This document shows, one piece after another, positions 1 to 4,261 of a DNA stretch of 4,261 nucleotides. The first letter of the stretch is position 1, and each line of letters opens with the position of its first letter. The DNA is from a virus (lineage: Duplodnaviria; Heunggongvirae; Uroviricota; Caudoviricetes), in IMG/VR virus record IMGVR_UViG_2657245448_000003, positions 1-4,261 of that record; one strand, written 5' to 3'. A program made the position numbers and the translations under genes. The notes beneath the pieces were generated by a model that saw nothing but the letters and a program-made list of their open reading frames with translations, searched no databases and was not told where the DNA came from.

Positions 1-2
1 GG

Positions 3-77
3 TACATGGATATGATGTGTGAAGCGCGTGGCGCGGCGGATCTTGTTTCCTCATCAGCGAGGGAAAGAGGGCTTTAA
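3..77 (+). CDS. Possible 3' end of an upstream gene entering the window (frame 3; ...YMDMMCEARGAADLVSSSARERGL*), unknown product
   Basis: Frame 3 is open from the window edge to TAA at 75-77, and that stop overlaps the ATG of the next gene (TAATG). Only about 24 codons are visible, so this may equally be a short spurious frame. Confidence 0.2.
   Translation, partial: YMDMMCEARGAADLVSSSARERGL
59..71 (+). promoter_or_regulatory. Shine-Dalgarno-like purine run (GAGGGAAAGAGGG) serving the 77..412 gene
   Basis: AGAGGG at 66-71 lies 5 nt upstream of ATG 77-79. Confidence 0.4.
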
Positions 78-412
78 TGAAACGGTTATGTTTGGCGTTA
101 GTTATGATGGTTACTGCTCCGGCGATGGCTGCAATTCAGTGCGGCAACTACACGATGACCGGTGACGGAATGACTGTTATTAACGGTGAAACTGTCACAT
201 CACAGAAGATAAAATTTCTGGGAAAAGATGGTGACTATTCAAACATGAAAATGGACATGGGCCTGATGCCTTCCCGTGATGGTAACAATTACGGCTTTGA
301 GTTTGTGAAACGTAACGGAAAAGCTTTCCTGAACGTCCAGCTGCTGCAGAACAGCATGGACGCGCCGAAAATCATTGGATCTTTCCCGTGTAAAAAAGTG
401 AGCAGCAAGTGA
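77..412 (+). CDS. Small secreted (periplasmic) protein of unknown function, 111 aa, with a cleavable Sec signal peptide
   Basis: ATG start with a good RBS. The N-terminus MKRLCLALVMMVTAPAMA-AIQ has a basic n-region, a hydrophobic core and an AxA signal peptidase I site. The mature part has Cys22 and Cys105 and is rich in G, N, D and K. The context before C22 (A-I-Q-C) does not resemble a lipobox. The stop overlaps the GTG start of the next ORF (GTGA at 409-412). Confidence 0.7.
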   Translation: MKRLCLALVMMVTAPAMAAIQCGNYTMTGDGMTVINGETVTSQKIKFLGKDGDYSNMKMDMGLMPSRDGNNYGFEFVKRNGKAFLNVQLLQNSMDAPKIIGSFPCKKVSSK

Positions 413-921
413 CAGTTGATGATGATCCTTTGAATTCATTTCAAGACCCTGACTTTCAGGAACTTCTCGGCGGAATTGATATTACTCTTGTTATAAGGTT
501 TTTTAATTATTTTTCGCGTTTCGAATATGCGTTAAAAAGAATTAATTTCAAAAAAACTGATCGTAGAAATTATCTAATCGGTGCTGACTGGAGCCGCTAC
601 GCTACTGATGATACGCGGCCTTTATATCCTACTGGAAATAGAAATGTCGATAGGGCAGTTGAGTATCTATGTCAGCAACCTGTGAAGCAGCAGAGGCATG
701 ATTTTTCGTGGGAGGATAAACCTCCAATCGAACCTCATTCTCTTGCTGAAGCATTAAAGCAGATCCCGTATATAAGAAATAATCTCTTTCACGGCGGGAA
801 GTATTTACGTCCCGCCCCCGTTCGTGATGAAAAGTTATTGAAATACTCTATTTATTTGATGCAGTTGTGTTTGATAACTGATAATCAGCTTTCTGAATAC
901 TTTAATACTATCCACCGATAG
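409..921 (+). CDS. AT-rich accessory ORF, 170 aa, hypothetical protein with a HEPN-like R-x4-H motif (IRNNLFHGGKY, codons at 772-801); candidate RNase toxin or abortive-infection protein
   Basis: It is the only long open frame on either strand across 409-921. The GTG start at 409 overlaps the upstream stop (an alternative in-frame TTG is at 430), and there is no in-frame ATG until near the 3' end. From about 481 the composition turns strongly AT-rich, with many AGA, AGG and ATA codons, unlike the flanking genes. R123-N-N-L-F-H128 fits the HEPN consensus R-x(4-6)-H with a polar residue after the Arg. An intrinsic terminator follows the stop. The functional call is inference from the motif only. 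Confidence 0.5.
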   Translation: MTVDDDPLNSFQDPDFQELLGGIDITLVIRFFNYFSRFEYALKRINFKKTDRRNYLIGADWSRYATDDTRPLYPTGNRNVDRAVEYLCQQPVKQQRHDFSWEDKPPIEPHSLAEALKQIPYIRNNLFHGGKYLRPAPVRDEKLLKYSIYLMQLCLITDNQLSEYFNTIHR

Positions 922-937
922 TCATTCTTCATGAGAT

Positions 938-970
938 AAAACCTGCCACCCGGCGGGTTTTTTGCTTTTT
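938..970 (+). terminator. Rho-independent terminator ending the accessory cassette
   Basis: A-tract 938-941; stem CCTGCC (942-947), loop ACCC (948-951), stem GGCGGG (952-957) giving 6 bp including one G-U pair; then TTTTTTGCTTTTT (958-970). It lies 17 nt after the TAG stop at 919-921. Confidence 0.65.
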
Positions 971-974
971 GGAG
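971..974 (+). promoter_or_regulatory. Shine-Dalgarno (GGAG) for the spike gene
   Basis: GGAG sits 7 nt upstream of ATG 982-984. Confidence 0.4.
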
Positions 975-981
975 CCTACCA

Positions 982-1734
982 ATGGCAGTAACTGACCAGA
1001 CCCGCAGTGGCGATCTTGCCGAAACATTTAAATCTGAACGGGAAACAACAAAGAACCAGATCCGTGTCGCCTTGCCTGGCATTATTCAGTCATTCGATCC
1101 TGACGCGGTGACGGCGGTTGTGCAGCCAGCTATCCGGTCAGTTGAAAAGGATAACGACGGTAACCGCATTACCAAAAATTACCCATTGCTGGTGGATGTG
1201 CCAGTGGTATTCCCGCGCGGCGGAGGCTGTACGTTGACTTTTCCGGTAAAAGCTGGGGATGAGTGTCTTGTCGTTTTTGCCGATCGTTGTATTGATTTCT
1301 GGTGGCAGAGCGGCGGGATACAGGAGACGGTTGATGACAGAATGCATGATTTATCGGATGCGTTTTGTATTGTCGGTCCCCAGTCGCAGGCTAGGAAGAT
1401 TAGCGGTATTAATACCAGTGCCACACAGTTGCGTAGTGACGACGGCAGCACCTATTTTGAGCTTAATCCTGATACCAGGAAAATTAAAATTGTCGCTCCG
1501 GGGGGGCTTGATGTGGTTGCCCCCCTGGCTGATTTTTCTGAGAAAGTAACCATTCATGGCCTGTTAACCTGGATGGGGGGCATGGTGGGGTCTGTGGTTT
1601 CTGGTGTGGCTTCAAAAATCACTGGTGCTGTTGAGTTTTTGGGGAGCGTGAAGGCTAACGGCAAGCCAATCGATGATACGCACACTCATGGTGGTGTTCA
1701 GCGCGGTGGAAGCAGTACCGACGGGGTAAACTGA
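982..1734 (+). CDS. Baseplate central spike / baseplate assembly protein (Gp138-N / P2 gpV / Mu gp45-like), 250 aa
   Basis: The N-terminal region (FDPDAVTAVVQPAIRS...YPLLVDVPVVFPRGGGCTLTFPVKAGDECLVVFADRCIDFWW) matches my recollection of the Gp138 N-terminal spike domain. The C-terminal part is Gly/Val-rich and ends with THTH (1678-1689), resembling the metal-binding HxH apex of phage spikes. Position directly upstream of gp46-like and baseplate J-like genes fits. No homology search was run. Confidence 0.8.
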   Translation: MAVTDQTRSGDLAETFKSERETTKNQIRVALPGIIQSFDPDAVTAVVQPAIRSVEKDNDGNRITKNYPLLVDVPVVFPRGGGCTLTFPVKAGDECLVVFADRCIDFWWQSGGIQETVDDRMHDLSDAFCIVGPQSQARKISGINTSATQLRSDDGSTYFELNPDTRKIKIVAPGGLDVVAPLADFSEKVTIHGLLTWMGGMVGSVVSGVASKITGAVEFLGSVKANGKPIDDTHTHGGVQRGGSSTDGVN

Positions 1735-2087
1735 TGCGATACAGACGTGAAGACGCCGATGGCGATTACACCTTTGGCAGCGGTGATGACACCTGGCTGA
1801 TTAACTCACCGGAGGCCGTGGCGCAGGCGGTAAAAACGCGATTCGAATTGTGGTATGGGCAATGGTTTCTCGACACCACCGAGGGGACTCCGTGGATCCA
1901 GTCCGTACTCGGTAAGCAGAAGCCGGAAACCTACAACCTGGCGATCCGTAAGCGCATCCTCGAAACGCAGGGCGTTAAATCAATCCTCTCTTTCAATACG
2001 ACGCTGGATACCACGACCCGACGTGTCATGTTTTCCGCTGAAATCGACACTCTTTATGGAATAACGACTGTTACATCGGAGGCGTAA
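1734..2087 (+). CDS. Small baseplate protein (Mu gp46-like / gpW-gp25-like), 117 aa
   Basis: The size and the position between spike and baseplate J match Mu gp46 / P2 gpW. The start overlaps the upstream stop (ATGA at 1732-1736). The assignment rests on synteny and size more than on a recognised motif. Confidence 0.65.
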   Translation: MRYRREDADGDYTFGSGDDTWLINSPEAVAQAVKTRFELWYGQWFLDTTEGTPWIQSVLGKQKPETYNLAIRKRILETQGVKSILSFNTTLDTTTRRVMFSAEIDTLYGITTVTSEA

Positions 2088-3286
2088 TGGCTCTGAACCT
2101 TGATTCTCTCGGTTTATCTGCAAAGGTAACCGCGGAGGGGATCAGTGCGCCTGATTATCAGACGATACTCAGCACCCTGATTAGCTATTTTCAGCAGATT
2201 TATGGCAGTGATGCCTACCTCGAACCGGACAGCAAAGACGGCCAGATGGTGGCTCTGATGGCGCTGGCGATTCATGATGCCAATAATACTGCGATAACTG
2301 TCTACAACTGTTTTTCACCGGCAACCGGCTATGGGGCTGCACTGACCTGTAACGTGAAAATAAATGGTATTTCACGTAAAGGCGCGACGAACTCTACGGT
2401 TGATTTGCTTCTTACAGGAACTGCCGGAACAACCATCATTAATGGCAGCGTGAAAGACAGTAATAATGTGATATGGCGTTTGCCTGCTTCAGTGGTGGTA
2501 GGCGTGGATGGTACAGTGATGGTGACCGCAACATGTTCCGTCAGTGGTGCAGTGGCGGCGCTGGCTGGAACTATCACTGAAATTAATACGCCAACCCGTG
2601 GCTGGGTTTCGGTAACCAATCCTGCTGCAGCCACTGTGGGCACTCCGGCAGAAACTGACGCTGAGTTACGTATCCGCCAGTCGCAAAGTGTTGCGTTGCC
2701 ATCAATAACCCCATTTGAAGCACTGGATGGTGCTGTTTCTAATGTTACCGGTGTAACCCGCCACAAACTCTATGAAAACGATACTGGTTCGGAGGACGGT
2801 AACGGGTTACCGCCACACTCTGTTGCTGTAATTGTGGATGGCGGTGATGTAACGGATATTGCTCAGGCTATCAGAGGGAATAAAGGCCAGGGGACAGCCA
2901 CTCACGGTACAACATCCGTTACGGTTCCGGATAAATACGGCAATCCCCATGTAATCAAATTCTCGCGTTCCAGTGATGTGCCTGTTTATGCCCTGATTAA
3001 ATTAAAAGTTTTTACGGGTTATACCTCACAGATAGGGCAGCAGATCCAGCAGGCTATTTCCGACTATATCAATAGTCTGATGATTGGTGATTCGGTCCTT
3101 TTAAGTCGCATTTACTCACCGGCGAATCTTGGCGTGGTGAGTGGCGGGAATGCACGCTATTACGATATTCAGGAACTGACGATTGGGAAATCCCCGGGGG
3201 CTTTGTCGTCATCAAACATTGATATCAGATACAACGAATCTGCGTCCTGTACCCCGAAAAATATCGTTATAACGGTGGAGTCATGA
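2087..3286 (+). CDS. Baseplate J-like protein (P2 gpJ / Mu gp47 family), 399 aa
   Basis: A 399-aa protein immediately after the gpW-like gene, with the start overlapping the upstream stop (TAATG at 2085-2089) and GGAGG just upstream. Length and composition are consistent with baseplate J wedge proteins. This is a synteny-based call. Confidence 0.8.
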   Translation: MALNLDSLGLSAKVTAEGISAPDYQTILSTLISYFQQIYGSDAYLEPDSKDGQMVALMALAIHDANNTAITVYNCFSPATGYGAALTCNVKINGISRKGATNSTVDLLLTGTAGTTIINGSVKDSNNVIWRLPASVVVGVDGTVMVTATCSVSGAVAALAGTITEINTPTRGWVSVTNPAAATVGTPAETDAELRIRQSQSVALPSITPFEALDGAVSNVTGVTRHKLYENDTGSEDGNGLPPHSVAVIVDGGDVTDIAQAIRGNKGQGTATHGTTSVTVPDKYGNPHVIKFSRSSDVPVYALIKLKVFTGYTSQIGQQIQQAISDYINSLMIGDSVLLSRIYSPANLGVVSGGNARYYDIQELTIGKSPGALSSSNIDIRYNESASCTPKNIVITVES

Positions 3287-3963
3287 GCAAATACACCGAA
3301 CTAATCACGAACTACCACGCCACCAAACCTAAATTTCTTGCGCATGTTGATCTGATGACCCGGCCACTTATTGATGTTGCGGCTGCCACCAGAGGGCTGA
3401 TTAGTGCATTTGATATTGACTCTGCGGTTGGTGTGCAACTTGACATCCTTGGATTGTGGATCGGACGTAGCCGTGTTGTCAGCCAGCCTATCTCAGGTGT
3501 CTATTTCAGCTGGGATACCGACGGGCTTGGATATGATCAGGGGGTATGGCAGGGACCATACGATCCTGATTCAGGATACATGTATCTCAGCGATGAAACT
3601 TATCGTGTCATTCTTAAAGCGAAGATTGCGATTAATAACTGGGACGGACGGAATGATTCGCTTCCGGCAATTCTTGACGCGGCAACAGCAGGATCCGGGC
3701 TGCGAATGCAGATAGTCGATAACCAGGACATGACGATATCGGTCTGGGTCTTTCCTGATACTGATATTTCAGATGTATCGCGTGAGTTAATTGCGGCAAT
3801 TAAACAGGGGTATCTCACAGTAAAAGCCGCCGGGGTATGGGCGGGTGGCATTGAAACACCTTCGGTGGAAACCCCATCGGAAGGCTCAAAATTTTTTGGT
3901 TTTGATATGGATAACGAATTCATCAGTGGTTTTGATGTAGGAGCATGGGGAGTATTACTCTGA
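3283..3963 (+). CDS. Baseplate/tail protein (P2 gpI / Mu gp48-like), 226 aa
   Basis: Follows baseplate J with an ATGA overlap at 3283-3286 and a GGTGGAG RBS upstream. Its place between J and the tail fibre matches gpI/gp48. The stop overlaps the next start (TGATG at 3961-3965). Confidence 0.65.
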   Translation: MSKYTELITNYHATKPKFLAHVDLMTRPLIDVAAATRGLISAFDIDSAVGVQLDILGLWIGRSRVVSQPISGVYFSWDTDGLGYDQGVWQGPYDPDSGYMYLSDETYRVILKAKIAINNWDGRNDSLPAILDAATAGSGLRMQIVDNQDMTISVWVFPDTDISDVSRELIAAIKQGYLTVKAAGVWAGGIETPSVETPSEGSKFFGFDMDNEFISGFDVGAWGVLL

Positions 3964-4261
3964 TGGCGAAAAATGACTTTAAAGCGTTTGCAACGGATCG
4001 AAATGCCAATGTTATATCGCAGGAGGAATGGGAAGCGTTGCCCGCGCTTTTATCTGGATTTACAGCAGGGAAAGCCTCCAGTGCGCAAGTCAATAAGGTT
4101 ATTCGGCAGGCCAGCTTCATTTTTACGGGGGCGAGAACCGATCGGGAAGTTGATGATCATATGCTCGCCGCGCTGGGCTGCATGGCTGTTATCGTCTTCC
4201 AGAGTATCTGGCGCACCAGCAACATACACCACCGGTTCATCGTGCACGACAGGCGCATCTT
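3963..4261 (+). CDS. Tail fibre protein, conserved N-terminal region (MAKNDFKAFATDRNANVISQEEWEALPALLSGFTAGKASSAQVNKVIRQASFI); frame stays open to the window end but is probably not genuine tail fibre beyond about 4124
   Basis: The N-terminal approx. 53 codons look like the conserved N-terminus of enterobacterial prophage tail fibres (recalled pattern ...ASSAQVNKxIRQxxFI...). After about 4122 the same frame uses rare codons (AGA, CGG, AGG, ATA) and gives an atypical peptide, while the opposite strand shows good codon usage. Confidence 0.5.
   Translation, partial: MAKNDFKAFATDRNANVISQEEWEALPALLSGFTAGKASSAQVNKVIRQASFIFTGARTDREVDDHMLAALGCMAVIVFQSIWRTSNIHHRFIVHDRRI
4125..4261 (-). CDS. 3' part of a convergent gene of unknown function running off the window edge (...DAPVVHDEPVVYVAGAPDTLEDDNSHAAQRGEHMIINFPIGSRPR)
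   Basis: The minus-strand frame is open from the window edge and uses typical E. coli codons (CTG, CCG, GAA, GGT, GCG). The six-frame track reports it from a GTG at 4247 running to a stop at 4050, but the frame continues open upstream to 4261. Below about 4125 it overlaps the conserved tail-fibre N-terminus and is probably fortuitous read-through. Confidence 0.3.

Follow-up and report, generated by a model that had tools for sequence, protein, structure and literature searches.

The phage part of the window

The window analysed here is a stretch of 4,261 bp that makes up the whole of contig CDRV01000363.1 from the fragmented draft assembly GCA_000937355.1; the locus as fetched is identical to it. 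Positions 1–4121 represent the baseplate/tail-fibre module of a SEN34-like temperate myovirus, with all genes on the + strand, and within this region positions 1–3963 are an ordinary contractile-tail baseplate module. The window enters the module in the 3′ end of a prophage tail/baseplate gene (1–76), which encodes a 354-aa hypothetical protein when intact and is identical over this length to positions 12001–12076 of the prophage locus in NZ_AP022003.1 (L001, CDS 11013–12077). Downstream of two small ORFs lie the genes for the baseplate central spike protein (982–1734), with a spike N-terminal domain and a GpV apex motif (PF18352, E = 5e-44; PF18946), a gpW/gp25-like baseplate wedge or sheath-initiator protein (1734–2087; phrog_120, PF10934), a Baseplate J/gp47-family protein (2087–3286; PF04865) and a DUF2612/baseplate wedge 1 protein (3283–3963; PF11041, E = 2.5e-47). 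The last phage gene is the tail-fibre gene (3963–4121), of which only codons 1–53 of the intact gene's 264 are present.

Escherichia phages vB_EcoM-606R2 and 611R5 have the same gene order (spike, wedge, baseplate J, DUF2612, fibre) and are identical to window 1–4121 but for one base, and Salmonella phage SEN34 is ~77% identical over the same region. The records of the two Escherichia phages contain the complete 264-codon fibre gene, whereas the window has its first 53 codons only. When 5,426 complete E. coli genomes were searched with megablast, positions 1–4121 matched a prophage in 22 of them, differing at the one base 4118; a match spanning at least 80% of this region in one piece was present in 79 genomes, and the end of the match was always 4121.

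The two small ORFs occupy a variable cargo slot between the tail/baseplate gene and the spike gene. The first (77–412, +) encodes 111 aa with a signal-peptide-like N-terminus and belongs to phrog_3443; the second (409–921, +) is AT-rich (36–40% GC), belongs to phrog_19013 and encodes 170 aa that include RNNLFH, an Rx4H HEPN-like motif. Neither gave a Pfam or PADLOC match. The slot is closed by a strong terminator-like hairpin (938–961, +) with a 10-bp stem followed by a T run. Because related prophages have other cargo at the same position (a HEPN-domain protein, a YafO toxin, DUF4282), the slot at 77–961 looks like a moron/defence hot spot.

The fibre gene abuts an internal fragment of xdhD

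The remainder of the window, positions 4122–4261 (4119–4261 when a shared ATT is counted), matches an internal part of xdhD on the opposite strand with 100% identity. This fragment comprises nt 926–1065 of the gene, codons 309–355 of 956, and runs off the end of the contig; the minus frame 4259–4122 reads XdhD residues 310–355 exactly. The break on the xdhD side falls after codon 355, at the first residue of MoCoBD_1, the first molybdopterin-binding domain. By megablast, 4122–4261 matches the interior of xdhD in 5,177 of the 5,426 complete E. coli genomes, at one place per genome. The 100%-identical allele is present in at least 60 genomes, E. coli 042 among them, other alleles differing by 2–3 nt that are all synonymous in the minus frame. 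Beyond the joint the xdhD frame runs on accidentally into fibre antisense (4050–4121, −) for 23 codons, NEAGLPNNLIDLRTGGFPCCKSR, to a stop at 4050–4052. No protein with this chimeric XdhD′ C-terminus was present in a collection of 5.8 billion proteins, and neither an exact look-up of the minus-strand partial product nor a cluster look-up of the 99-aa + strand product returned anything.

The allele in the contig tail is of the 042 type (A4125, G4128, G4194). In 042 itself the annotation lists xdhD (L002:3195–6065) as a pseudogene: a stop inside the gene, at codon 294, ends translation after 293 residues. The tail allele differs at 2–3 synonymous sites from the xdhD of the three identical-prophage genomes that we checked (L005, L007, L008). 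The two halves of the contig thus best match different lineages, which is a weak hint that they may not come from one background. A tiny xdhD contig that overlaps the tail (P0007, 339 nt) was set aside because it comes from a different assembly.

A preliminary description of the window, made from its letters and open reading frames, had noted that the tail-fibre frame breaks after the residues RQASFI. Comparison with the intact 264-aa fibre bears this out: the + product from 3963 is identical over residues 1–53 (53/53) and shares none of the following 46, and the DNA match to the prophage ends at 4121. The difference in codon usage that it reported is also real, the + frame past the joint having 5 very rare codons in 46 (AGA, AGG, CGG twice and ATA) and the minus frame 0 in 46; in the six complete phage genes of the window very rare codons make up 3.4%. 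It was right, too, that the two overlapping frames cannot both be genuine. The minus frame is xdhD, and the + frame, which from 3963 would stay open for 154 codons in total, is accidental past 4121. An alignment of the intact fibre continuing past residue 53, or a minus frame lacking homologues and good codons, would have spoken for an unbroken fibre gene, and we found neither. RQASFI does not, however, mark the end of the conserved fibre N-terminus as had been supposed: PHROG profiles cover residues 1–120 of the intact protein, so the break lies inside a conserved domain and not at a module boundary.

A three-way comparison of the contig with its two parental sequences defined the joint at 4118–4121. 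Across it the prophage reads ...GGCCAGCTTTATT and then GCTGCAGC, xdhD reads ...GGCGGCGATATT and then TTTACGGG, and the contig reads ...GGCCAGCTTCATT and then TTTACGGG. The junction had been placed near 4122–4127, within a few bases of its actual position at 4118–4122. The parental sequences abut base to base with no extra DNA between them. Both parents have TATT here, a 4-nt microhomology, and the contig has CATT, so that ATT alone is retained; the chance probability of such sharing is P = 0.016 for at least 4 nt and 0.05 for at least 3 nt. The C at 4118 is therefore a T in both parents. It was found in none of the 5,177 xdhD copies, and none of 493 copies of the fibre N-terminus matched the contig exactly with C4118 included, which led us to reject a natural polymorphism at this position.

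The surroundings of the joint are otherwise unremarkable. No inverted repeats were found in 3800–4261, and the only direct repeat there was an unrelated one of 10 nt; none flanks the joint. A hairpin or quasi-palindrome at the breakpoints was rejected, since neither the parental sequences nor the joint folded better as DNA than shuffled controls (z 0.1–1.2). Extended patchy homology to the left of the joint (15/30 matches including TATT, 11/26 without it, P ~0.04) was judged too weak to be retained.

The intact prophage continues past the joint

Among the possibilities first raised for this locus was a cryptic prophage boundary. Intact copies of the prophage continue for ~3 kb past the joint, to an insertion site beside yfhH, and in three genomes the interior of xdhD lies 380–390 kb from this yfhH-side insertion site, which does away with a boundary in the narrow sense. 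In NZ_AP022003.1 the fibre gene (L001:15963–16757) is followed by tfa (+), a second tfa (−), an alternative fibre C-terminus (−), a truncated invertase gene and one further ORF, after which come the host genes yfhH, pgpC, tadA, mltF and purL. The prophage adjoins yfhH wherever we inspected the flank (NZ_AP022003.1, and the prophage record ON470588, which has the same host flank), and two further genomes have it equally far from xdhD.

The intact fibre locus (L001:15963–18456; L006:10963–13504) is organised as a Gin/Pin-type invertible segment. As in the Mu G/Gin, P1 C/Cin and e14 P/Pin systems, the fibre N-terminus is constant and is followed by two sets of fibre C-terminus and tfa that converge, the crossover repeats are inverted, and an invertase gene lies alongside. 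The crossover repeats, AAACCTTGGTTTGGGAGAAG, are 20 nt long and lie in inverted orientation at L001:16295–16314 and 18109–18128. The invertase gene is truncated (267–315 nt) both in the chromosome and in the deposited phage record, and the segment is therefore probably frozen in one orientation. Convergent coding after a constant N-terminus resembles the layout of the window, which made invertase switching the most obvious candidate among biological causes. The joint, however, corresponds to L001:16118–16121, 175 bp upstream of the crossover site, and the convergent sequence is antisense xdhD, out of frame with the fibre, and not an in-frame alternative fibre C-terminus (0/46 residues shared, many rare codons).

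Two of the deposited phage records are of interest in their own right. That of vB_EcoM-611R5 (L006, ON470588.1), deposited as a complete phage genome, ends, at 15233–17486, in the host genes yfhH, pgpC and tadA; it thus covers a stretch of prophage with flanking host DNA and not the genome as packaged. That of vB_EcoM-689R2 (ON470582.1) stops at window 3963, precisely on the start codon of the fibre gene, which suggests that this gene is a recurrent breaking point in assemblies of the phage.

Arrangement of the two halves in reference genomes

In NZ_AP022003.1 the prophage part of the window lies at 1,371,526–1,375,646 on the + strand and the xdhD part starts from 985,990, also on the + strand, so that the contig jumps backwards by 389,657 bp. 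The same arrangement is found in NZ_CP040263.1 and in NZ_CP122451.1, the latter from a different lineage, the jump back being ~380–390 kb in the three genomes. As the two halves are on the same strand with the second upstream of the first, neither a simple deletion nor an inversion can produce the joint, on the assumption that the source genome has the reference synteny; the deletion junction that had been proposed is excluded on these grounds of order and orientation. Were the order reversed, a deletion would also take out essential genes such as lysS and prfB. The joint connects a downstream point to an upstream point on the same strand (1,375,646 to 985,990 in NZ_AP022003.1), as in a tandem duplication or circle, and on the reference coordinates its geometry would fit only a duplication or circle joint or a chimera. 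The interval between xdhD and the prophage in NZ_AP022003.1 also contains a chromosomal ISEcp1–blaCTX-M-24–IS903B unit, between kduD and araE (L004:31675–35478).

Occurrence of the joint

The two parts of the window were found together at one place in 0 of the 5,426 complete E. coli genomes; the best coverage was 97% and stopped at 4121. The joint was likewise not found in plasmid and phage collections, nor was an exact 36-mer spanning the junction found in the GTDB representatives (185,579 species-representative genomes) or in JGI metagenomes. A literature search on the assembly accession and the phage records found nothing relevant. The contig carries the flag 'samples_with_this_contig 2'; the same flag was seen for an unrelated NCBI contig, and it probably denotes a GenBank/RefSeq duplicate and not an independent replicate. 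CDRV01000363.1 itself ends 140 nt past the joint (143 nt including the shared ATT).

Origin of the joint

The joint is unique, sits at a contig end and has the structure and geometry described above, from which we infer that it arose in vitro or in silico. On what is a circumstantial case, the joint is probably an artefact, that is, a chimeric contig end and not biology. Ligation or polymerase template switching in library preparation, or possibly mixed template, would have produced a chimeric DNA molecule or read consisting of part of the fibre gene and part of xdhD. In putting together a fragmented, probably low-coverage draft, the assembler would then have used it to carry the contig roughly a read length beyond the point at which it left the true fibre sequence. 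The cell would in that case have neither the 99-codon 'fibre' ORF nor the truncated XdhD′ ORF: its xdhD would be intact and ordinary, and so would its fibre gene be ordinary (or assembled separately).

The observations agree with a chimeric end in several respects. The foreign tail is limited to about one read length at the end of the contig, as would be left by a chimeric read or by a side branch of the assembly graph, and the joint is reproduced in no independent genome. Since xdhD is single-copy, a genuine unique joint should have assembled kilobases further. The left end of the contig likewise lies within sequence that is single-copy in relatives, which suggests coverage-driven fragmentation, a situation in which chimeric reads go unopposed, and the orphan base C4118 is consistent with a base called from very few reads. 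The record ON470582 of the same phage also breaks at the fibre gene, and the 042-type xdhD allele of the tail weakly hints at a mixed origin. In short-read drafts, chimeric contig ends and misjoins look much like this: distant single-copy loci abut, a tail about as long as a read sits at the end of a short contig, the joint is unique and a base belonging to neither parent is present. Two features go beyond what such a model calls for, the microhomology of 4 nt and the contig's unbroken course on the phage side. The latter speaks against an artefact: because the contig crosses the joint unbroken from the phage side, the assembler saw no competing fibre continuation. As for the former, a shared TATT has P ~0.016 under random blunt ligation and so favours a template switch, which is possible in vivo as in PCR. 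The length of the tail also restricts the form that an artefact could take. At 140–143 nt it exceeds k−1 of most de Bruijn assemblers of the period (k in SPAdes goes up to 127). A simple merge in the graph therefore does not account for it; read extension, an overlap-based assembler or a long k would be needed.

The same features can be read as the real joint of a ~380–390 kb tandem duplication or amplification, or of an excised circle, running from xdhD to the fibre gene and present in all or part of the culture. We consider this unlikely. RecA-independent template switching at TATT would have created the joint, accompanied by a de novo T>C point mutation within the microhomology, and a natural E. 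coli isolate would carry the joint fixed or at high frequency. The same-strand, backward-jumping geometry is the signature of such an event, and the end-to-start connection is shared with the RecA-independent, template-switch duplication joints at microhomologies of E. coli and Salmonella; a short common sequence at the breakpoint (TATT in the parents, of which the contig keeps ATT) and a substitution next to the junction may be further points of likeness. Base changes close to microhomology joints are a known feature of stress-induced amplification in E. coli. A tail longer than k−1 of common de Bruijn assemblers is also what a real event could give. Since the flanks would exist in their normal context as well, the assembly graph would fork in xdhD, and the early end of the contig beyond the joint could be due to that. 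That argument has a counterpart on the phage side, where the fibre N-terminus should branch into either the remainder of the fibre gene or xdhD, yet the contig is unbroken for 4.1 kb. In addition, the joint occurs in no other genome, no hairpin beyond shuffled controls is present at either breakpoint, and selection is not apparent. Large duplications without selection are unstable, usually subclonal and seldom dominate an assembly, and a span of ~390 kb is large for microhomology-mediated duplication events.

The missing branch on the phage side would be accounted for by a real unique breakpoint, i.e. a deletion, inversion or translocation in a genome where the prophage is placed or oriented otherwise than in the references. 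This amounts to the cryptic prophage boundary of the preliminary description in a broad sense; the fibre gene and xdhD would both be truncated and the prophage defective. The phage is mobile and present in more than one lineage, so that another insertion site is conceivable, and in a fragmented assembly a random break 140 nt after the joint could occur. Set against this, the prophage sits beside yfhH in the flanks inspected and keeps its distance from xdhD in the two further genomes, the reference synteny excludes a deletion or inversion, and for contigs of several kb the chance of ending no more than 140 nt past a unique joint can be put at ~1–3%. We therefore regard a unique breakpoint as very unlikely.

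Phage-recombinase and mobile-element mechanisms, by which the invertase would have acted at a pseudo-site in xdhD, an IS or transposon would have inserted, or the prophage would have excised aberrantly as in specialised transduction, are nearly excluded: the fibre locus of the intact prophage does include an invertible segment, a 20-nt inverted crossover repeat and a remnant of an invertase gene, and aberrant prophage excision yields circle-type joints at short homologies, but the joint lies 175 bp upstream of the crossover repeats and is unlike them in sequence, the invertase is truncated in relatives, no transposase, terminal inverted repeat, target-site duplication (the last two having been suggested as things to look for) or extra inserted base was found at the joint, the supposed foreign segment is the core E. 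coli gene xdhD, present in 5,177 of 5,426 genomes, and an excision circle would measure ~390 kb in the reference synteny, ~9 times the 42.7-kb phage genome.

Implications

If the joint were real, it would be a rearrangement joint of a known kind that inactivates two genes, and of modest interest; as a duplication, it would add one more microhomology-mediated large duplication in a wild isolate to a known class of event. If, as we think probable, it is an artefact, the 99-codon 'tail-fibre' ORF and the truncated XdhD of CDRV01000363.1 should not be counted as genes, and the joint would be neither a prophage boundary nor evidence of prophage decay. The lesson for draft assemblies is that an abrupt break in homology should be checked for a nearby contig end before biology is read into it.
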